A DNA stretch of 32,000 nt from Ferroglobus placidus DSM 10642 (GTDB lineage Archaea; Halobacteriota; Archaeoglobi; Archaeoglobales; Archaeoglobaceae): assembly GCF_000025505.1 (NCBI RefSeq), contig NC_013849.1, forward strand, positions 1,230,001 through 1,262,000. The letters are read 5' to 3'. A model generated the notes under the pieces. That model had not been told where the DNA came from and made no database searches. It saw only the letters and a program-made list of their open reading frames with translations. The position numbers and the translations under genes are program-made. Positions 2,894-17,863 of the stretch are shown piece by piece (within the stretch, counting starts at the first letter, position 1; each line of letters opens with the position of its first letter).

Positions 2894-3567
2894 TACCTCA
2901 CCCCCAGATACTTGTGGACTTGAGGAATTATTCTTGCGTCGCTGAATTCGAGAATCGCTTCCTGCAATTTTAAAATGTTTTCCCCGAACGTTCCGAAGAC
3001 CGGCTGGAGCACGAAACACCTGACGTAATCTTTAATTTCCATCGCTGAATTTAACACTTCCTCGAAATTGAACTTCGGTGGAAGAACTATCTTGCAGAAG
3101 GTTACTCTCTTTCTCGTGTCTCTCAGAATTTTGTAACACTTTACGGTCCTTTCGAAAACCTCATCGTAATTTTCCACAGCCTCTCTAACCTTTAAATCTC
3201 CAGCAACTACGTCGAAAAACCTGACCTTCTTCGCTTTCTCTGGGAGAGTCATGTTTGATTCGAGGTAAAACTTCTTGGTTTTTTTGAGACTGGCTATGAA
3301 ATCTGCGTAAAGCAAAGGCTCTCCTCCCGTGAACGAAACGGAGTGGATTCTCTCGCTTTCGTCTATTATTCTCTGCACATAATCCAATTCTACGGGATTT
3401 TTTCTCACCTCGTTGTAAGCGTAGTTAACGCAATCCTCGTTGTAAGTTGTGTCGCAGTAGTAGCAGTTTAGGTTGCACCCGTAGAATCTGATGAAGAGCT
3501 GCCTAACGCCGCAGAAAATTCCCTCTCCTTGAATTGAGTAAAAAATCTCACTGATTTTTGCCTTCAT
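2893..3567 (-). CDS. queE: 7-carboxy-7-deazaguanine synthase (radical SAM)
   Basis: 224-aa ORF with N-terminal SIQGEG and the radical-SAM cluster motif CNLNCYYCDT. It lies between queC and queD. Confidence 0.85.
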   Translation of the reverse strand: MKAKISEIFYSIQGEGIFCGVRQLFIRFYGCNLNCYYCDTTYNEDCVNYAYNEVRKNPVELDYVQRIIDESERIHSVSFTGGEPLLYADFIASLKKTKKFYLESNMTLPEKAKKVRFFDVVAGDLKVREAVENYDEVFERTVKCYKILRDTRKRVTFCKIVLPPKFNFEEVLNSAMEIKDYVRCFVLQPVFGTFGENILKLQEAILEFSDARIIPQVHKYLGVR

Positions 3568-10151: not shown

Positions 10152-11488
10152 TGGAAGCAGAAATAGTAACTGTTCCAGGAACGAAAGCGTCTACCGTTAA
10201 CAGATTGCTTCGAAAAAAATTTGAAAGGATTAAATTCAAACCTGACTTCGCTTTGATATTTATTACTTCAAGATTGTATGATGAGCATAAGCATGTTCTC
10301 GATTTTATAAAAAATTCTCTTAAGTGTGATTCTGTGGCGTTTTTCATCGAAGCTTACGGGGGAGAGGAGGGTAGTTGGGCTCAGGGAGTGGCAGTAGCAT
10401 TGTTCAGCGGAGACGTCGGGGTTTTTCAGACAGGAAAGGGGCACATTTTGGAGGAGCTCGAAAGCATCGGAAGGAGACTCAGAAGCTACGATGCGGCGAT
10501 GGCGATATATCCTCTATTTTACTTCCCATCAAGAAGAGAGATTTTCGAAACTATTACGAGAGAGAAATTTTATGCAAGAAGGTACAATTCTTGCTCCGAC
10601 TTAGAATGTAAAAAAAGCGTCCTTGAAAATTTTTCCAATTACCTAATCAGAAATAGAATCGTAATGCCAGCAAACGAAGTTATGAGAGCTTTATCCACTT
10701 CGAAAATACCTGTTGCCGGAATAAATCTTTTCCCGATGGAGGCTCGTTTTAACACGCCAAAGATATTCAGGAATTACGAGGAGATAGGAAGAAACGCCCT
10801 CGTTCTCGGATTCAAGAATGCGAAAGTCCACTTTCACGAAATTTATCCAGAGAGGGGCAAAAGCTTCGAAGAAACCCTCGAAATTTTGGAGAGCGTTTTG
10901 CAAGTTAAGGAAGTTACAAAGGCTGTGAAGAAAGGCGTGGCGATAGGAGAAGTTGGAGGGATGAGGGTAGTGGACTATGCGAGAAAGTTCATGTACATGG
11001 AGGAAATGACCGAAGAAAAATTTGTTTCTGGTATTGAGCGAGGGGAATTTATAACGTATTCTCCTTATGCTCTGGCTTTCGTCAGCAGAGAAACTCACGG
11101 TGTGGCTGGATTGGGGTTAGCTAATGTGCCTATTTCGCTTTATCCTTCTGTTTTTATGCTTGACGGATTTTATGATGAGTGTATTATGGTTGGCGAAGTG
11201 TTTAGAGGAGGTATACAAAAATTTGCAGAAGTTAAAGATCTTAAAACTGATGCGAATATTAGATTTTACTTTATCGATGCAAATACCATTTTAGCTTTTA
11301 GGGGGGAAATATCAGAGATTACGAATGCGATTAAAGCTGAAGAGATAAAAGGAACGAAATGGTTAGCTTTATACGTAACTCCGCCATCAGCGTATTTGCC
11401 AGTGAAGCATAAAAAGTTTCTTTCAGAAATTAACAAAGATATTATGTATTTTGGCTCTGGAACGAATTTACTATTCGAAATAAAATAG
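10151..11488 (+). CDS. 445-aa hypothetical protein; N-terminal third FIST-like (tentative)
   Basis: TAATG junction with the upstream gene. KPDFALIFITSRLYDEHKHVLDFIKNSLKCDSVAFFIEAYGGE...GVAVALFSGDV resembles the FIST_N pattern. The rest is unassigned. Confidence 0.3.
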   Translation: MEAEIVTVPGTKASTVNRLLRKKFERIKFKPDFALIFITSRLYDEHKHVLDFIKNSLKCDSVAFFIEAYGGEEGSWAQGVAVALFSGDVGVFQTGKGHILEELESIGRRLRSYDAAMAIYPLFYFPSRREIFETITREKFYARRYNSCSDLECKKSVLENFSNYLIRNRIVMPANEVMRALSTSKIPVAGINLFPMEARFNTPKIFRNYEEIGRNALVLGFKNAKVHFHEIYPERGKSFEETLEILESVLQVKEVTKAVKKGVAIGEVGGMRVVDYARKFMYMEEMTEEKFVSGIERGEFITYSPYALAFVSRETHGVAGLGLANVPISLYPSVFMLDGFYDECIMVGEVFRGGIQKFAEVKDLKTDANIRFYFIDANTILAFRGEISEITNAIKAEEIKGTKWLALYVTPPSAYLPVKHKKFLSEINKDIMYFGSGTNLLFEIK

Positions 11489-12340
11489 TACTGCATATAT
11501 TATTGTGAAGAAGAAGCCAGCATATACAGTCATCTGAACTCTTCTGGCAAGTTCGAAGGATATTGCCCAATTTTCTTTAGAGCTCTTGACGAAATAGTAT
11601 GCTGGAATTAGAGAGAAAGCTATCGGGAAAATCGGAGATATTTTTATGAATTTTTGTGAAAATGCTGCAAAAGTTATGTAGAACAGTATGTTTAAGCAGA
11701 AGAAAGTTTTTATCAAATTTTCAGCTTCAAAAACAACTCCGAGCGTCTTCCATCCAGCTCTTCTATCTTCACTTATATCTTTTAAATCTTTTATAAATAC
11801 CGTCGAAATAACAAAGGGTGAGAAGGAAAGGGAAAGCAATACAGCCTTATCGTTTATCGGCTTCACGAGGTCGTGGAGAGAAAGAATGAAGGAGGGTACG
11901 CAGACGATATACGTGAGAAGCTCAGTTGCGTAATGCTTCTTCAATCTTAATTTTGTGATCATGTTGTCCGAGTAGAGGAAAGTTAGAAGTAAAACGATGG
12001 TGAAGAGTATTTTTCCGAGCGGAGTCGAGGAGAGGGTGAAGAAAATTACTAACGATAGAGCATATGCTAAGAAAACATATGCAGTTGTAGCCTTTCTAAC
12101 GTTATCGTAAATAAAGGGAGTGTTTTTCCCTGCCTCAAAATCCTCTTTGTAGTCGTTTACGTGATTCCAGAGGTTTAGTGCTGAGTAAAACAGAGACGTG
12201 AACAGAATTACGATAGCGATATCAAGCAAACTCCCATCGGCGAAACCGACGATCAAAATCGGAAGAAGGGGGATAGGATAAAAGATTGTGGGTGGCTTAG
12301 CCGAATATGCTATCACAGCTTTTATTAAATTCTTGTCCAT
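11471..12340 (-). CDS. UbiA-family aromatic/isoprenoid prenyltransferase (polytopic membrane protein)
   Basis: 289-aa hydrophobic ORF with the Asp-rich motifs NHVNDYKED (NxxxDxxxD) and DLKDISEDRRAG (DxxDxxxD). Confidence 0.8.
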   Translation of the reverse strand: MDKNLIKAVIAYSAKPPTIFYPIPLLPILIVGFADGSLLDIAIVILFTSLFYSALNLWNHVNDYKEDFEAGKNTPFIYDNVRKATTAYVFLAYALSLVIFFTLSSTPLGKILFTIVLLLTFLYSDNMITKLRLKKHYATELLTYIVCVPSFILSLHDLVKPINDKAVLLSLSFSPFVISTVFIKDLKDISEDRRAGWKTLGVVFEAENLIKTFFCLNILFYITFAAFSQKFIKISPIFPIAFSLIPAYYFVKSSKENWAISFELARRVQMTVYAGFFFTIIYAVLFYFE

Positions 12341-12382
12341 ATTTTAGCAATATAATACTAAAACTTTTAAATTTTTGATTCT

Positions 12383-12472
12383 CTAACTAACAAAGAACAA
12401 CTTCATTCCCTTAAAAGCCTCTTCCACCTTCTTCTCCTTCTTCCTCTCCATCTTCACCACCTCAAAAAACAT
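12383..12472 (-). CDS. possible 29-aa K/E-rich small ORF upstream of the UbiA gene (tentative)
   Basis: Hand translation MFFEVVKMERKKEKKVEEAFKGMKLFFVS*. A TATA-like ATTTAAATAA lies about 25-34 nt upstream on the same strand. It sits on a purine-rich tract. Confidence 0.2.
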   Translation of the reverse strand: MFFEVVKMERKKEKKVEEAFKGMKLFFVS

Positions 12473-12610
12473 GCTCCTAAATAAATTTTTAGGTTTATTT
12501 AAATTATAATAATTCTAAATATAATTCAAAATCTATGATTTCCCAAAATAGTTTGATTTCATCGGGCTATTTGGCTGTTGATAAGTTCAACGCCGTCATT
12601 GATTTTACCT

Positions 12611-12628
12611 AATTACAAATTTGTAATT
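12611..12628. repeat. 18-bp perfect palindrome AATTACAAATTTGTAATT (candidate protein-binding site)
   Basis: Read directly; the two halves are exact reverse complements. It lies in the 610-bp AT-rich spacer. Confidence 0.35.
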
Positions 12629-12926
12629 TCTAAAACTTAAATTTTTCCGTGCAGCTTAAATATTTCAGTTTTTTGAGCTAAAAACGGGAAAGTGCTGTAA
12701 TTTAAACCACCAGCTTAAAAAATGCGTGATGTCGTCTCTTTTCGAGCGTGGTGCATTAGTATTTCAGGTATTTCTGATCGACGGAACAATTTCGTAGTTG
12801 CGTGCTGAGAATTTGAGTTCTAAAAATTTCCCGAATTCTCAAGCACTTGGATACAAATTCAATTCTTCGGCTAATTGAAGGATCAAAAAAGCTGGGCTTG
12901 AATAGCAATTTTGGAGCGGATAAAAT

Positions 12927-12937
12927 TATTTAAAAAG
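12927..12937 (+). promoter_or_regulatory. tmcA TATA box
   Basis: TTATTTAAAAA is centred about 28 nt upstream of ATG 12960, and no SD is present. Confidence 0.4.
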
Positions 12938-12959
12938 CGCAAGCGTAAATCGATTGAGA

Positions 12960-15251
12960 ATGACGTTCACGGCTTTGATGGAAGAGGTGGAAAAAGCTCA
13001 CGAAATATCGAAGGCTAACAGGCACAGGTTTGCGGTTTTTCTCTGCGCAGATGAGCTGGAAGAGCGTATTTTGAAGCAGGCGAAAAAGATAGTCAGGAAG
13101 GTTAACGCCGAAAACGTCCTCGCTGTCGGAAGAAGCAAGTTCGTTGAAATGGCGAAAAAGCACTTTAAAGGCAAGATCATTCACTACAAAGACACTCCCT
13201 CAGTTTTGGGTGAAACTTACGACGCCTTAATCATCGACATGATGGACGGCTTTCATCCGAACGATTTAGGAATTGTTGTCGAAACGATAAGAGAGGGTGG
13301 AGTTATCGTCGCTCTTTCTCCAAAAATCGAAAAGTGGTTCCATCTGGTTGGGAAGTGGCACGAAGAGCTTGTTAGCGAGCCTTACACTGTTGACGATGTC
13401 GTGCCAAGATTTTACAGAAGATTCATAAAAAAAACGCTTGAAGCTGACGGAATAATTATCTTCGATTCCGACAAGAGGAAGATTCTGAAGAAGTTCACTT
13501 ACAAAAAGCACGAAGCCACGAGGGAAGAAATAGTAATTCCGAGCGAGGAGAGGGAGATAAAGAGGAAGCTCTACAAGTTGTGCGCAACTCAGGATCAGGT
13601 CAGGGTTTTAGAAGCTTTTGAAACGTTCTTCGATAGAAAGAGGGAGAAGAAAGCGGTGGTCATTACTGCAAACAGGGGAAGGGGAAAAACAGCCGTTTTG
13701 GGGATAGTCACTCCCTACTTAATCTCGAGGATGAACAGGGTTTTGAAGAGACCGGTGAGAATTCTTGTCGTAGCTCCAACTCCTTATGCTGTACAAACGT
13801 ACTTTAAATTCTTGAAGAAGGCTTTGGTCAGGCAGGGGATGAAGGAATTTAAGGAGAAGAGGTCGAACGATCTTGTTACAGTAATCAACAGCAAGTGGGC
13901 ACGAGTGGAATATGCCGTTCCGAGGAGGGCGATGGTGGAAAAGGATTACGCCGACATAATTATAGTGGACGAAGCCGCCGGAATCGACGTTCCGGTTTTG
14001 TGGAAAATAGTCGAGGGAGCGAAGTACATGGTCTTCTCAACAACAATTCACGGATACGAAGGAACTGGAAGAGGTTTTGCGATCAGATTTCTGAGAAGGC
14101 TTGAGAAGGACGAGAGCGTCGAAATCGTGAAAATTCACATGGAAGAGCCGATAAGGTACGGAAAAGGAGATCCAATAGAAGCTTGGCTTTACGAGGTGTT
14201 GATGCTCGACGCTCAGCCGGCTAAGATTGAGGAGGAAGACGTTGAAAAGATAAAGAGAGGGGAGCTTGAGTTTGAGGAAATAGATAAAGACGAGTTGATA
14301 AAGAACGATTCGCTGCTTAGGGAGTTCTTCGGAATCTACGTTCTCGCCCACTACAGAAACAGACCCTCCGATCTGGTCATCCTTCTCGACATGCCCAATC
14401 ATCTGCCCCTGAGGGTTAAGGTGAACAACAAGACCGTTTGCAGCTTGCACATCGCGATAGAAGGTAAGATGGACGAAGCTACAATTGAAAAGATAGCCAA
14501 GGGTTACAAGCCGAAGGGACAGATAATTCCCGATTTAATTTTGAAGCACTACTGGAATTACGAGTTTCCGAAGCTTACCGGGATAAGAATTGTTAGAATC
14601 GCAACTCATCCTGATGTGATGGACATGGGTATCGGCAGCTTCGCTTTGAAAAAGGCTGTTGAATGGGCGGAAAGCAAGGGAATGGACTGGGCTGGGAGCG
14701 GATTTGGAGTTTCTCCAGAACTTCTCAGATTCTGGATGAGAAACGGTTTTACTCCCGTTCACATAACTCCTCAGAGAAACGAGGTTTCGGGAGAGCATTC
14801 AGCTATAGTTTTGAAAGCTTTGAACGACAAAGTCTACGAGATGCTTGAGGAGATAAACTCGGAGTTCATAAGGAGGCTTATAGAGCTTCTCGGAGACGAA
14901 TTGAAGGATCTGGAGGTTGAGACGACGAAGCTCCTCCTTTCGAGCATACTAAAGCCGGCTAAAATTCCGAAGCCGGAGTTTGGCAGGGTCGAGAGGAGAA
15001 GAATTAAAAAGTATTTGCAGGGGCAGAGTCTTTACGAGTACACTTCCGATATCATAAAGCCGATGGTTCGCTACTACTACTCTCAGATGGAAAAAATCGA
15101 CCTTGATGAGGATGAGGAAAAGCTGCTAATAGCCAAATGTTTGCAGCTTAAAAGCTGGAGCGAGATTGACGTTGAAAAATCCTACAAGAAAATGGTTAAA
15201 GCAGTGCAAAAGCTGTGGAGGTGGTTCTACGAAGGAGGAGAAGAGGATTAA
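12960..15251 (+). CDS. tmcA: tRNA/RNA cytidine N4-acetyltransferase (TmcA/Nat10 homolog)
   Basis: An ORF of about 763 aa. It has a helicase-type P-loop ANRGRGKTA with IIIVDEAA, and a GNAT core RIVRIATHPDVMDMGIGSFALKKAVEWA. A C-terminal helical tRNA-binding-like region follows. The overall size and domain order match TmcA. Confidence 0.9.
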   Translation: MTFTALMEEVEKAHEISKANRHRFAVFLCADELEERILKQAKKIVRKVNAENVLAVGRSKFVEMAKKHFKGKIIHYKDTPSVLGETYDALIIDMMDGFHPNDLGIVVETIREGGVIVALSPKIEKWFHLVGKWHEELVSEPYTVDDVVPRFYRRFIKKTLEADGIIIFDSDKRKILKKFTYKKHEATREEIVIPSEEREIKRKLYKLCATQDQVRVLEAFETFFDRKREKKAVVITANRGRGKTAVLGIVTPYLISRMNRVLKRPVRILVVAPTPYAVQTYFKFLKKALVRQGMKEFKEKRSNDLVTVINSKWARVEYAVPRRAMVEKDYADIIIVDEAAGIDVPVLWKIVEGAKYMVFSTTIHGYEGTGRGFAIRFLRRLEKDESVEIVKIHMEEPIRYGKGDPIEAWLYEVLMLDAQPAKIEEEDVEKIKRGELEFEEIDKDELIKNDSLLREFFGIYVLAHYRNRPSDLVILLDMPNHLPLRVKVNNKTVCSLHIAIEGKMDEATIEKIAKGYKPKGQIIPDLILKHYWNYEFPKLTGIRIVRIATHPDVMDMGIGSFALKKAVEWAESKGMDWAGSGFGVSPELLRFWMRNGFTPVHITPQRNEVSGEHSAIVLKALNDKVYEMLEEINSEFIRRLIELLGDELKDLEVETTKLLLSSILKPAKIPKPEFGRVERRRIKKYLQGQSLYEYTSDIIKPMVRYYYSQMEKIDLDEDEEKLLIAKCLQLKSWSEIDVEKSYKKMVKAVQKLWRWFYEGGEED

Positions 15252-15549
15252 TTTCGATCCGGAATTTGTGGAGATGATTTTAAAAAAGGGAAAGACGACG
15301 ACTGTGAGGAGGGGAATTAAGAGATATCCGGTGGGAAAGATAGTTGAGCTCACAGTGAACTACGAACCCTTCGCCAAAGCCAAGATAGAGCGGGTTGTTG
15401 TGAAGAGAGTTTCGGAGCTTACTGACGAAGACGCAAGGAGAGACGGATTCGAAAGCAAAGAGGAGTTGATAAACGCTTTAAAGAAAATTTACGGGAACAT
15501 AAACGAAAACGAGTTCGTTACGATAGTTCACTTTTCGCTGGTGGGGTAA
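15166..15549 (+). CDS. ASCH (PUA-like) domain protein, YqfB-like; start codon uncertain
   Basis: The recognisable domain begins at INFDPEFVEMILKKGKTTTVRRG (ATT 15247, overlapping the tmcA stop). It ends ...LTDEDARRDGFESKEELINALKKIYGNINENEFVTIVHFSLVG. The only upstream ATG is 15166, which gives an 86-nt overlap with tmcA in the +1 frame. Confidence 0.7.
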   Translation: MTLKNPTRKWLKQCKSCGGGSTKEEKRINFDPEFVEMILKKGKTTTVRRGIKRYPVGKIVELTVNYEPFAKAKIERVVVKRVSELTDEDARRDGFESKEELINALKKIYGNINENEFVTIVHFSLVG

Positions 15550-15565
15550 ATCGTTTTTTGAAAAG

Positions 15566-16174
15566 CTATTCACCGTTTTTCGATTCCTTAGTTTCACCTT
15601 GGGAGAAACCTCCAGATATTATAATTTTCATAGCCTCCTCAACGCTGATGTCCAGATAAATCAGCTCCTCTTCGGGGACCAAAACAACGAGTCCGGAAGT
15701 CGGGTTCGGGGAGGTAGGGATAAAAACGTTGACAAGGTTTTTTCCAGTTTTTTCGCACGCCGCTTTTATCGACTTTCCGGAGGTGAAGCCTATCGCGTAT
15801 AGCCCTTTCCTCGGATACTCGACCAAAACAACCCCACGAATTTTTTCAGCCTCGCCCTCTATAAGCACTTTCACAGCCTCTTTTGTTGCGCTGTAGATCG
15901 TTCTGAGGAGGGGAACTTTTAGAAAGCTTCTCTCAAGTCTTTCGATGATTTTTCGCCCCAAGGCGAATCTACTCAGCAAGCCGAGGATTAGAATCGTCAG
16001 AAAGAGTAATAGCAGGCTAAATCCCGGAACGTAAAATCCCGAGATTTTGTGTACCGCCGGAGAAATTAGGTTTTCGATCCACCTAAAGGTGAAGTAGAGA
16101 ACGAAAATCGATGCAGCCAGAGGCAAGAATATCACCAGTCCGGCAAGCAACGTATCTCTCAGAGTCTTGAGCAT
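15566..16174 (-). CDS. DUF502-like membrane protein
   Basis: 202-aa ORF with two N-terminal TM helices (LLAGLVIFLPLAASIFVLYF and GFSLLLLFLTILILGLL) followed by a soluble domain. The pattern is reminiscent of the DUF502 family. Confidence 0.55.
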   Translation of the reverse strand: MLKTLRDTLLAGLVIFLPLAASIFVLYFTFRWIENLISPAVHKISGFYVPGFSLLLLFLTILILGLLSRFALGRKIIERLERSFLKVPLLRTIYSATKEAVKVLIEGEAEKIRGVVLVEYPRKGLYAIGFTSGKSIKAACEKTGKNLVNVFIPTSPNPTSGLVVLVPEEELIYLDISVEEAMKIIISGGFSQGETKESKNGE

Positions 16175-16276
16175 GCTTCAAGTTTCTTCGAATGCAAGAT
16201 AATAGTTTTGTTTAGCTTGCATTTTTGCAAGAGAAATTTTATCAAACATATCACTCAAAAATAATCACGATTGTTT

Positions 16277-16969
16277 ATGGCGAATGACGTAGTGCAGAGT
16301 AACCACGAATTCGACCTTGACGACGTTGTATCAAAATTAGAGGGATTGAGGACGCTGATCGTGTACGATTCGAAGTACGTTGTGAGGTCTCTCATTTTTG
16401 GAAAGATTATTCCCCGCTACGCCGATAAAAAGTTGTTCATTGCCGTCTATTCGGACAGCATGATGAGGAGGCTCGGAAAAACTTACGAATCTATTCCAGA
16501 TGCTAACGTGAAAAGGATCTTGGATAGGGCGGCAATAATTAAAGTTGGGTTGAACGAAAGGATACCTTTCGGGAAGCTACACGCTTACGTGGACATACAC
16601 TCCGAATGGTGGGAGGATTTGATTGACGAGCTTTACGAAGTTGGGGACGCGCTTTTAATTTTCCACGGCTTCTCCTTGCTCCCGCTCGTTTACGGGAAAG
16701 AGGCGTGGAAGTATTTAATGGACATCTTCGACGCTCTGCCGGATGAAGTGACTTTCGTGAACAAAATAGCTTCAAACCTTTACGGCGGGGAGGTTAAGCA
16801 GTTCATGGAGCGCTTTCACGATGTAATTCTAAAGATCAGATGGGAGGAGGAATTCTTTCCCGTAGGCAAAACTTATTGGATCGGAGTAGAGCAGAGCATA
16901 ATCTTCGACGTTAAGCCCGGGTACGCGAGATATAAGCTCGTTGGAGAGGACTTGCAGAAAGTCGATTAG
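16277..16969 (+). CDS. hypothetical protein with KaiC/RecA-like strand-helix pattern but no P-loop
   Basis: 230 aa from ATG 16277. TLIVYDSKYVVRS sits where ArlH/KaiC have GxxGxGKS/T, LLIFHGFS sits at the Walker B position, and the C-terminus ILKIRWEEE...YARYKLVGEDL resembles the KaiC-like terminal hairpin. Confidence 0.4.
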   Translation: MANDVVQSNHEFDLDDVVSKLEGLRTLIVYDSKYVVRSLIFGKIIPRYADKKLFIAVYSDSMMRRLGKTYESIPDANVKRILDRAAIIKVGLNERIPFGKLHAYVDIHSEWWEDLIDELYEVGDALLIFHGFSLLPLVYGKEAWKYLMDIFDALPDEVTFVNKIASNLYGGEVKQFMERFHDVILKIRWEEEFFPVGKTYWIGVEQSIIFDVKPGYARYKLVGEDLQKVD

Positions 16970-17179: not shown

Positions 17180-17863
17180 GTGGGTAGGAGAGCTTTGAGG
17201 AAGGACGAGAGGGGAGCGATAGGCATTGAGATACTGATAGTGTTCATAGCGATTGTGCTTGTAGCGGCAGTGAGTGCTGCGGTGCTGATTCAGACCGTCG
17301 GTTATCTACAGCAGAAGGCTACTGCTACCGGAAGAGAAACTACACAAGAAGTTGCAAGTGGTATTAAAGTAGTGAGAGTGTTAGGATATGTTCCGGACCC
17401 TAAGCAGAGTTACAGCAACATAACTAAGCTGGCAATAATCGTTGAAGTGAATACTGGTGGACAGGAGATTGATTTAACGACTACGAGAATAATTCTGTCC
17501 AATGAAACGAAAACGTTAACACTCTACTACGATGATGCAGCGACGAATAAATCATTTACCGATGCATCTACCGGTGTAAGCGATCTATTCGACGATACGC
17601 TGGATGCTTGGGCTTTCTTGGGAAGTACGGAGTTTGGTATAATCGTTCTCCAAGACGAGGACGACTCTCTCTCTGACTCGTATCCTGTATTGAATAAAGG
17701 AGACAAGGTTGCGCTAACGATAAATGTACAATCAGCGTTTGGAACAGGATTCTATCCGAGAGAAGACGTTAGCGGTGAGGTTAGACCTGAACTTGGAGCA
17801 CCAGGAATAATAGAGTTCGTAACTCCACCGGCATACACAACTAAAGTAATAGAACTGCAGTAA
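17180..17863 (+). CDS. arlB: archaellin (FlaB/ArlB)
   Basis: Class III signal peptide plus hydrophobic core: [53 protein letters not shown]. Three N-x-S/T sequons (NIT, NET, NKS). The GTG start has an SD. Confidence 0.9.

Follow-up and report, generated by a model that had tools for sequence, protein, structure and literature searches.

A tmcA gene overlapped by a YqfB-type ASCH gene in Ferroglobus placidus and other archaea: a likely writer and amidohydrolase of N4-acetylcytidine

ASCH domains have a PUA-like fold and are predicted to bind modified bases (bioRxiv 10.64898/2026.08.01.741249), and the small ASCH protein YqfB of Escherichia coli is an amidohydrolase of N4-acetylcytidine (ac4C). 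Here I describe an ASCH gene of the archaeon Ferroglobus placidus DSM 10642 that overlaps the 3' end of tmcA, the gene for an RNA cytidine N4-acetyltransferase of the TmcA/Nat10 family. Both genes lie in a stretch of 32,000 nucleotides (nt) of contig NC_013849.1 (positions 1,230,001 to 1,262,000), called the window below, and all coordinates are given within it. A sequence-only reading of the window had proposed that the ASCH protein ties the removal or salvage of ac4C to its synthesis. The activity of an orthologue and the conserved adjacency of the two genes support that proposal, and the operon itself has already been published (bioRxiv 10.64898/2026.08.01.741249).

The closest described protein is Afu2ASCH of Archaeoglobus fulgidus. 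In a preprint of February 2026, the Meskys laboratory assayed 19 ASCH proteins, including three of A. fulgidus (bioRxiv 10.64898/2026.02.27.708502). Afu2ASCH, a member of the group with a G-K-T-R octapeptide, hydrolysed the ac4C nucleoside completely within 4 h, on overexpression in E. coli reduced the ac4C of tRNA despite the endogenous TmcA, and in vitro removed both ac4C34 from E. coli tRNA and the D-stem ac4C12 from wheat-germ tRNA. It is absent from the list of proteins that shifted tRNA when assayed by electrophoretic mobility shift (EMSA), whereas archaeal paralogues with an added helix-turn-helix (ASCH-HTH) bind tRNA strongly. The same preprint reports that deletion of E. coli yqfB leaves tRNA ac4C unchanged and cites temperature-dependent ac4C levels in hyperthermophiles. 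It supersedes the statement in the sequence-only reading that no archaeal ac4C-removing enzyme is known. Its main text mentions no adjacency, neighbourhood or gene cluster, and its sole use of the word 'operon' concerns another gene. A preprint of August 2026 on EOLA1 does note a conserved operon of YqfB-clade and TmcA genes, and uses it to argue that such enzymes act on TmcA-made ac4C (bioRxiv 10.64898/2026.08.01.741249). Its authors favour salvage of free ac4C, the only form on which EOLA1 acts and one that cytidine deaminase is unable to use, and they describe fusions of ASCH to NAT10-like acetyltransferases in another ASCH clade.

Two preprints of 2026 had thus already reported the operon and the enzyme activity of the A. 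fulgidus orthologue, and what the Ferroglobus locus adds is incremental: a survey of the linkage in archaea, an architecture of overlaps and Shine-Dalgarno (SD) motifs that predicts coupling, and an annotation problem at the start of the Ferroglobus gene, which NCBI places at an ATT codon.

The Ferroglobus gene pair and the family of its ASCH protein

I consider it likely that tmcA and the ASCH gene form a co-transcribed unit of two genes, probably with coupled translation, whose second product is a YqfB-type ac4C amidohydrolase with salvage as its favoured role. The features concerned are these:

12929-12936: TATA-like TTTAAAAA, about 25-30 nt upstream of ATG 12960; putative promoter element
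12954/12960..15251, + strand: tmcA, RNA cytidine N4-acetyltransferase of the TmcA/Nat10 family (open reading frame and Pfam)
13668-13694, + strand: Walker A motif (P-loop) ANRGRGKTA of the TmcA helicase-like ATPase domain (sequence motif)
15217..15224, + strand: SD-like GGAGGTGG in the W-R-W codons of tmcA, 4 nt upstream of codon 15229; putative SD
15229..15231, + strand: ACG at the ancestral ASCH start-codon position; candidate non-canonical start, overlapping tmcA by 23 nt
15231-15246, + strand: purine-rich, SD-like GAAGGAGGAGAAGAGG
15234..15240, + strand: GGAGGAG, another SD-like motif, which forms the core of GAAGGAGGAGAAGAGG, ending 6 nt upstream of ATT 15247
15247..15549, + strand: ASCH-domain coding sequence as annotated by NCBI, 100 amino acids (aa) from ATT 15247 (P0001, MNFDPEF...)
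15286..15309, + strand: ASCH octapeptide KGKTTTVR, of which K, T and R align with YqfB Lys21, Thr24 and Arg26 (profile alignment)
15424..15450, + strand: DEDARRDGF, with the Asp of DGF aligned to YqfB Glu74 and the Asp of D-A to His70
15481..15495, + strand: KKIYG, with an invariant Tyr aligned to YqfB Tyr89 (substrate ribose/base contact)
15554..15559, + strand: run of six T (T6), 5 nt past the ASCH stop; putative terminator

The ASCH open reading frame (ORF) is in the +1 frame relative to tmcA and runs to 15549, with its stop at TAA 15547-15549. Its recognisable domain opens, as the sequence-only reading had stated, with the Ile codon of INFD (ATT 15247-15249), which shares one base with the tmcA stop TAA 15249-15251. 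The ORF is 99% identical to P0001, the NCBI 'ASCH domain-containing protein' of Ferroglobus placidus. The ASCH signature first read from sequence patterns is significant in a profile hidden Markov model search, where Pfam ASCH (PF04266) matches over model positions 2-102 of 103 at 56.2 bits against a gathering cut-off of 21.2 (E = 6.4e-15). That match begins at residue 29 of the ORF counted from 15166, one residue past the I of INFD. Homologues, most of them from Archaeoglobi, are nearly all 102-108 aa long and start with M-[E/D/K/R]-[R/K]-I-N-F-D. Invariant in 33 diverse homologues are the K, T and R of G-x-K-x-x-T-x-R, the D-A-x-x-D-G-F segment and the Tyr of I-Y-G; the Lys and Thr that had seemed conserved in the sequence-only reading are invariant across the family, likewise the Arg and Tyr. 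In Ferroglobus the motif reads GKTTTVR (15289-15309), running into the following R and carrying Thr rather than Glu. The protein is basic, with an isoelectric point (pI) of ~9.

When the PDB was searched with the single sequence (phmmer), no ASCH structure was matched and only weak, chance-level matches came up; a family profile was required. The best match of that profile is E. coli YqfB (9KYF/9KYG/9KYH; E = 5.3e-4 for 9kyf), with GkKvtTvR aligned over YqfB GRKTITIR, the D of D(GF) over E74 and Y over Y89. An AlphaFold2 model of the Ferroglobus protein, with a predicted local distance difference test score (pLDDT) of 94.4, points to the same enzyme: its three best PDB matches in Foldseek are YqfB crystals (9kyf/9kyh; E = 1e-7, TM-score (TM) 0.83-0.87), at a root-mean-square deviation of 1.4 Å over 101 columns. 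YqfB outranks 3S9X, ZmASCH and PH0355 in this search, and the next best, 3s9x, reaches a TM of 0.74 when normalised to the query and 0.51 when normalised to the target.

The residues that the YqfB mechanism is thought to use are largely present. In the sections of the YqfB study drawn on here (PMC6972931), the proposed nucleophile is Thr24, the base Lys21, the acid Glu74 and the oxyanion hole Arg26. The K21A, T24A and R26A variants are inactive, E74A has a turnover number 100- to 1000-fold lower and H70A is down ~tenfold in activity, while no activity is reported in those sections for D27A; Asp27, His70 and Tyr89 are 100% conserved among close YqfB relatives. The position of Glu74 is an invariant Asp in the Ferroglobus family, a conservative replacement, and this Asp of DGF may be the acidic third member of the Thr-Lys-Glu triad in place of Glu.

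Direct biochemistry comes from A. fulgidus. Its protein P0086 was missed by the first homologue search and recovered by a profile search; it is 103 aa long (MERINFDSEF...HFEVVK), and its identity to Ferroglobus ASCH is 71% over 99 residues without a gap. The cloning primers of Afu2ASCH identify that enzyme as P0086, since against A. fulgidus DNA the reverse primer is exact and the forward primer agrees in 17 of 18 bases. In A. fulgidus DSM 4304 the Afu2ASCH gene directly follows tmcA, with a 14-nt overlap and an ATG start. Ferroglobus ASCH is the orthologue of Afu2ASCH, and by analogy with that enzyme it would hydrolyse ac4C.

Two side observations concern names and primers in this family. The forward primer for Afu2ASCH in Supplementary Table S1 (10.64898/2026.02.27.708502) reads …ATTAACCTT and the genome …ATTAACTTT, one base apart, which may reflect a typographical or text-extraction error, or else F6L in the cloned protein. 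P0079, a 107-aa ASCH homologue (38% identity, E = 2.6e-6), bears the Joint Genome Institute (JGI) name 'cytidine deaminase', which is likely a mis-annotation, though from a related area of pyrimidine metabolism.

Linkage of tmcA and ASCH genes across archaea

A scan of one genome per species gave 80 loci, and these, together with two metagenome loci, were searched with Ferroglobus TmcA. The identity of their ASCH proteins to that of Ferroglobus and the place of tmcA are as follows:

41 single-domain loci: 55-98% identity; tmcA immediately upstream and in the same orientation in 28 of 41, absent at the locus in 13 of 41
L056 (Bathyarchaeota): 40% identity; tmcA directly upstream, overlapping
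L075 (Geothermarchaeota): 41% identity; tmcA upstream, gap of ~120 nt
L071: 44% identity; tmcA on the same strand, 1.6 kb off
L042: 48% identity; tmcA on the opposite strand, ~2 kb off
Two-domain relatives of 194-210 aa (Desulfurococcales, Pyrodictiaceae): 41-49% identity; tmcA linked at no locus

The 28 linked loci span the Ferroglobus, Geoglobus-like and Archaeoglobus lineages, Candidatus (Ca.) Mnemosynella, Ca. Pyrohabitans and the Hydrothermarchaeota, and the linked ASCH proteins of other phyla retain the K-T-R, D-G-F and Y residues. Because A. fulgidus and other phyla share the order of these 28 loci, usually with overlap, the linkage of tmcA and ASCH is real and old and not a product of chance. 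The adjacency that had been noticed in one genome is thus a conserved one.

Of the 13 close loci without the linkage, eight fall in one Archaeoglobaceae subclade (L005, L007, L015, L016, L017, L019, L021 and L024), where the ASCH gene stands divergent beside hisS (Pfam tRNA-synt_His, 1e-68) and encodes a protein of ~70% identity with its motif intact. At the A. fulgidus locus (L083-L085:2047-2646) a Macro-domain gene (PF01661, E = 2e-31) precedes tmcA by 70 nt in the same orientation. It was rejected as part of a conserved unit, with no homologue in the window or the other fetched loci.

Gene overlap, start codon and surroundings

In nearly all linked loci the ASCH gene has an ATG or GTG 6-18 nt ahead of the INFD Ile codon, and the tmcA stop falls between 17 nt ahead of that codon and 14 nt past it (+71 nt in L001/L004). 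The resulting junctions are these:

Most linked loci: overlap of 4-32 nt
L001 and L004: long overlap of 89 nt
L034: gap of 4 nt

In the relatives an SD-like GGAGG or GGAGA precedes the ASCH ATG or GTG by 4-5 nt and is encoded by the W-R-W codons at the TmcA C-terminus. The C-terminal W-[R/E]-W-[Y/F]-Y stretch of TmcA is dual-coding (TGG AGR TGG TWC TAY G; window 15217-15231, junctions L001-L040): its codons provide the SD-like GGAGG/GGAGA and, for most relatives, also the ASCH ATG or GTG. Between the two Ferroglobus genomes ~31 nt before 15247 are without substitutions, though synonymous divergence (dS) is 0.7 elsewhere. The overlap of the two genes and a joint constraint on their sequences extend across Archaeoglobi and several further archaeal phyla. 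In L001 and L004, relatives at 88% (junction near L001:3231-3322), ATAAAC replaces ATTAA and tmcA is 71 nt longer.

Since the SD and start of the ASCH gene lie inside the last tmcA codons in relatives, ribosomes that end tmcA could reinitiate there, and in Haloferax termination-reinitiation has been demonstrated at overlapping gene pairs, often with help from an intragenic SD (PMC6728339). The overlap and the SD-like motifs are present in Ferroglobus as in its relatives, including GAAGGAGGAGAAGAGG at 15231-15246, the element that the sequence-only reading had placed before the domain; the start position in Ferroglobus is ACG, or ATT 18 nt later. The T6 run past the ASCH stop is likely to mark the end of a two-gene transcript.

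L001, L004 and L002, the closest relatives with a canonical start, have ATG where Ferroglobus has ACG 15229, and the change from ATG to ACG is TAT to TAC in tmcA, which is synonymous (Tyr). An independent metagenome-assembled genome (MAG) of Ferroglobus, L003, has the same ACG. Because its junction is identical over 45 nt, an assembly error is excluded, and a sequencing error or indel, for which the sequence-only reading had asked that 15230-15260 be rechecked, is rejected. Despite the ACG, the Ferroglobus ASCH ORF is under strong purifying selection. It differs from that of L003 by 29 synonymous and 4 non-synonymous changes (dS 0.71, non-synonymous divergence (dN) 0.017, dN/dS 0.02-0.035), and since both genomes bear the ACG, the gene is therefore functional and expressed. 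With ATG turned into ACG, initiation in Ferroglobus would have to use ACG 15229 or ATT 15247, both of which are possible starts as judged from the sequence. The candidates compare as follows:

TTG 15166 / 15172: overlap of 86 / 80 nt; rejected
ACG 15229: overlap of 23 nt; possible, at the ancestral position with proper SD spacing
ATT 15247: overlap of 5 nt; possible, the NCBI choice, 6 nt after GGAGGAG
GTG 15268 / ATG 15274: no overlap; rejected as sole start

The codon at 15166, once taken for the only in-frame upstream ATG, is a TTG, and a second in-frame TTG stands at 15172. Both were rejected: the 25-residue (75-nt) extension differs at 6 positions between the Ferroglobus genomes, every one of the 6 changes being silent in tmcA but amino-acid-changing in the ASCH frame, and in L001 it contains a stop. 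GTG 15268 and ATG 15274 are in frame, and either as sole start would delete the first conserved strand, the invariant I-N-F, as had been pointed out earlier. A public 93-aa call, P0002 (L001, from an internal ATG and without the N-terminal strand), was truncated by the gene caller, because L001 has an ATG at -18. L008 (Archaeoglobales archaeon B10_G2, ~3059-3073) is a second, independent case of ACG at an SD-defined ASCH start (GGAGGTGGtacgACGtcgATA); there the canonical starts in frame come no nearer than an ATG 63 nt upstream.

The upstream gene, tmcA, is an intact ORF of 765 codons (12954..15251, +) that opens with TTG 12954. It matches TmcA_N (1e-33), NAT10_TcmA_helicase (8e-57) and GNAT_acetyltr_2 (6e-41), all above the Pfam cut-offs, so that ORF, domains and P-loop agree with the earlier description of a tmcA with helicase P-loop and GNAT core, followed by an ORF in the +1 frame. 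Against NCBIfam NF041296, the haloarchaeal equivalog, it scores 501 bits, under the cut-off of 700; by these profile matches it is a member of the TmcA/Nat10 family but not an NF041296 equivalog. ATG 12960 is the more likely start, in preference to TTG 12954, because of the TATA-like TTTAAAAA about 25-30 nt upstream of it, and the arrangement suggests a leaderless mRNA that begins at ATG 12960.

Between tmcA and the divergent UbiA-family gene (11471..12340, -) lies an unusually long AT-rich intergenic region (12341-12953, 613 nt). No tRNA gene or Rfam family was found in it or elsewhere in the window, no 16S rRNA lies within the window, and its tandem repeats are trivial only. On the other side, a DUF502 membrane protein gene (15566..16174, -) is convergent with the ASCH gene and is followed by a 232-aa ORF (16271-16969, +) that a Pfam search left without a match and by an archaellin-like ORF (17180-17863, +). 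In L001 a DUF502 gene is also found downstream of ASCH, and an archaellin gene (PF01917) is upstream of tmcA instead; the synteny around the pair is kept only partly between the window and L001.

Salvage, erasure and comparison with known systems

On the reading that I favour, one bicistronic transcript would start near ATG 12960 and end at the T6 run. TmcA would write ac4C into RNA with acetyl-CoA and ATP, and the ASCH protein (~100-106 aa) would be a metal-independent YqfB-type amidohydrolase that turns ac4C into cytidine and acetate, by analogy with YqfB through a Thr nucleophile, a Lys base, an Asp acid (for YqfB Glu) and an Arg oxyanion hole. Its task would be housekeeping salvage, the recycling of free ac4C nucleoside or nucleotide released by turnover of heavily acetylated RNA, and through the coupling to the writer salvage capacity would rise and fall with ac4C production; accessible ac4C in RNA may to some extent be acted on as well. 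In relatives, the ASCH start and SD within the last tmcA codons would let ribosomes that finish tmcA reinitiate, and in Ferroglobus initiation at ACG 15229 or ATT 15247 would probably be less efficient and dependent on tmcA translation. Salvage is favoured because N4-acetylation blocks cytidine deaminase, because tRNA ac4C is unchanged by yqfB deletion, because Afu2ASCH is not among the EMSA tRNA binders, and because fixed co-expression with a writer suits housekeeping demand better than it suits an antagonistic regulator.

Several observations weigh against this reading. Adjacency is lost in 13 of the 41 close loci, so coupling is not obligatory. No canonical in-frame start exists between TTG 15172 and GTG 15268, and a review lists AUG, GUG and UUG as the only archaeal start codons. 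The link to YqfB proposed from sequence holds in that YqfB is the best PDB match by both profile and structure, but the statement that the two align closely was overstated: identity is only ~19% in the fold alignment, and NF003443, the NCBIfam equivalog for N4-acetylcytidine aminohydrolase, scores 21.7 bits (E = 1.8e-4) against a cut-off of 93. In the profile alignment YqfB His70 is replaced by Asp and Asp27 by Arg or Lys throughout the Ferroglobus ASCH family. The protein is in the YqfB-type (G-K-[T/S]-R) clade, yet it is not an equivalog of the enterobacterial YqfB. The supporting biochemistry, moreover, comes from preprints and was obtained at mesophilic temperatures, with heterologous tRNA and by overexpression, and the readiness with which Afu2ASCH deacetylates tRNA, including a D-stem site, fits an eraser as well as it fits salvage.

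The same enzyme might thus have RNA as its main substrate in vivo, as an eraser or proofreader of ac4C in tRNA, rRNA or mRNA that trims off-target acetylation by a promiscuous archaeal TmcA or resets acetylation as temperature falls. This seems to me somewhat unlikely, though well worth entertaining, given that Afu2ASCH lowered tRNA ac4C in E. coli against the endogenous TmcA and removed ac4C34 and ac4C12 in vitro, that the protein has a pI of ~9, and that ac4C in hyperthermophiles is temperature-dependent, as cited by bioRxiv 10.64898/2026.02.27.708502. A writer co-translated with its own antagonist would, however, make a futile cycle with little room for regulation. Nor is Afu2ASCH among the tRNA shifters; tRNA ac4C is unaltered in the yqfB deletion, EOLA1 takes free ac4C only, and strong tRNA binding is found in separate ASCH-HTH paralogues. 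A further proposal holds that, with the ASCH SD and start embedded in the W-R-W-Y-Y codons of tmcA, ASCH synthesis is strictly dependent on and proportional to that of TmcA, that the two proteins act together, for instance as a writer-plus-proofreader complex that keeps ac4C to its correct sites, and that the ratio has been lowered in Ferroglobus and, independently, in L008 through the ACG/AUU start; I regard it as speculative and rather doubtful.

In eukaryotes, THUMPD1/Tan1 help Nat10 to act on tRNA, and the ASCH protein could by analogy be a non-catalytic ac4C reader or RNA-binding adaptor for TmcA. The PUA-like fold with its predicted affinity for modified bases would suit such a part, and overlapping coupled gene pairs often encode subunits of a complex, as the title of PMC10666635 has it. 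It is nevertheless a very unlikely role for a protein in which Lys, Thr and Arg, on which the YqfB mechanism relies, do not vary and the Glu74 position is an invariant Asp, whose orthologue Afu2ASCH is catalytically active and gives no tRNA shift in EMSA, and whose gene lies away from tmcA in one third of close relatives. That the Ferroglobus gene has fallen silent or is decaying after start-codon loss is suggested by the ATG-to-ACG change at 15229 and the want of a canonical start from TTG 15172 to GTG 15268, but the intact ORF, the dN/dS of 0.02-0.035 between the two ACG-bearing Ferroglobus genomes and the retained strand 1 residues (I-N-F) make this highly improbable. It is extremely improbable that a +1 ribosomal frameshift at the tmcA stop, or an assembly indel, conceals a single TmcA-ASCH fusion. 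The ASCH domain does begin exactly at the tmcA stop, behind an SD-like element and without a canonical start, and fusions of ASCH to NAT10-like acetyltransferases are known in another ASCH clade; yet the junction is identical in the independent MAG L003, relatives have their own SD and ATG or GTG with a tmcA stop that varies from -17 to +71 nt, homologue searches gave no protein >210 aa, and GAU-UAA would offer no re-pairing for a +1 slip.

An amidohydrolase devoted mainly to salvage and co-expressed with TmcA therefore remains the reading that I prefer. The RNA of hyperthermophilic archaea is rich in ac4C, whose level responds to temperature, so that the removal and recycling of ac4C are a live question, and the locus adds comparative support to the idea that YqfB-type ASCH enzymes handle TmcA-made ac4C. 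An ACG or AUU start in Ferroglobus and L008, if true, would be one of the few cases of near-cognate initiation documented in Archaea, and the Ferroglobus start could be used to probe, on a small scale, non-AUG initiation or reinitiation in this domain.

Set beside known systems, the Ferroglobus pair is familiar in most of its parts. Its tmcA shares the complete TmcA_N, helicase and GNAT layout and the P-loop with TmcA/Nat10/Kre33 enzymes, although it stays under the haloarchaeal equivalog cut-off (501 vs 700 bits). The TRIP4-like or G-K-E-R clade (EOLA1, TRIP4, TthASCH, ZmASCH) has the same ASCH fold, counts several ac4C deacetylases and includes members linked or fused to NAT10-like acetyltransferases. 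These are, however, larger proteins in which Glu replaces Thr in the octapeptide and the catalytic requirement differs from the YqfB type; their fold match to the Ferroglobus model is weaker (TM 0.46-0.74, query-normalised), with ZmASCH, TTHA0113 and EOLA1 ranking lower in the fold search. The archaeal two-domain ASCH-HTH proteins (Afu3ASCH, Pku4ASCH; AAAD_HTH) have the G-K-T-R catalytic domain in common with the Ferroglobus protein but add a C-terminal extension, according to the February preprint a tRNA-binding HTH, which the Ferroglobus protein lacks. The Desulfurococcales and Pyrodictiaceae relatives (P0074-P0078; L045-L082; 194-210 aa, 41-49% identity) also carry a C-terminal extension of ~90 aa; it has no Pfam match and is probably the AAAD_HTH tRNA-binding domain of the Meskys preprint.

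E. coli YqfB (9KYF/9KYH, 1TE7; NF003443) is, like the Ferroglobus protein, an ASCH domain standing on its own and of the same size. Lys21, Thr24, Arg26 and Tyr89 are retained in Ferroglobus, whereas Glu74, His70 and Asp27 are changed. The gene yqfB presumably does not adjoin tmcA in E. coli. The February preprint contrasts YqfB-type enzymes with net-positive ASCH proteins, and the basic Ferroglobus protein is in this respect unlike those enzymes. The nearest likeness is to Afu2ASCH: both are single ASCH domains of ~103 aa with a G-K-T-R octapeptide and a pI of ~9, and both genes overlap the 3' end of tmcA, the A. fulgidus gene with an ordinary ATG start and the Ferroglobus gene with ACG at the ancestral start position.

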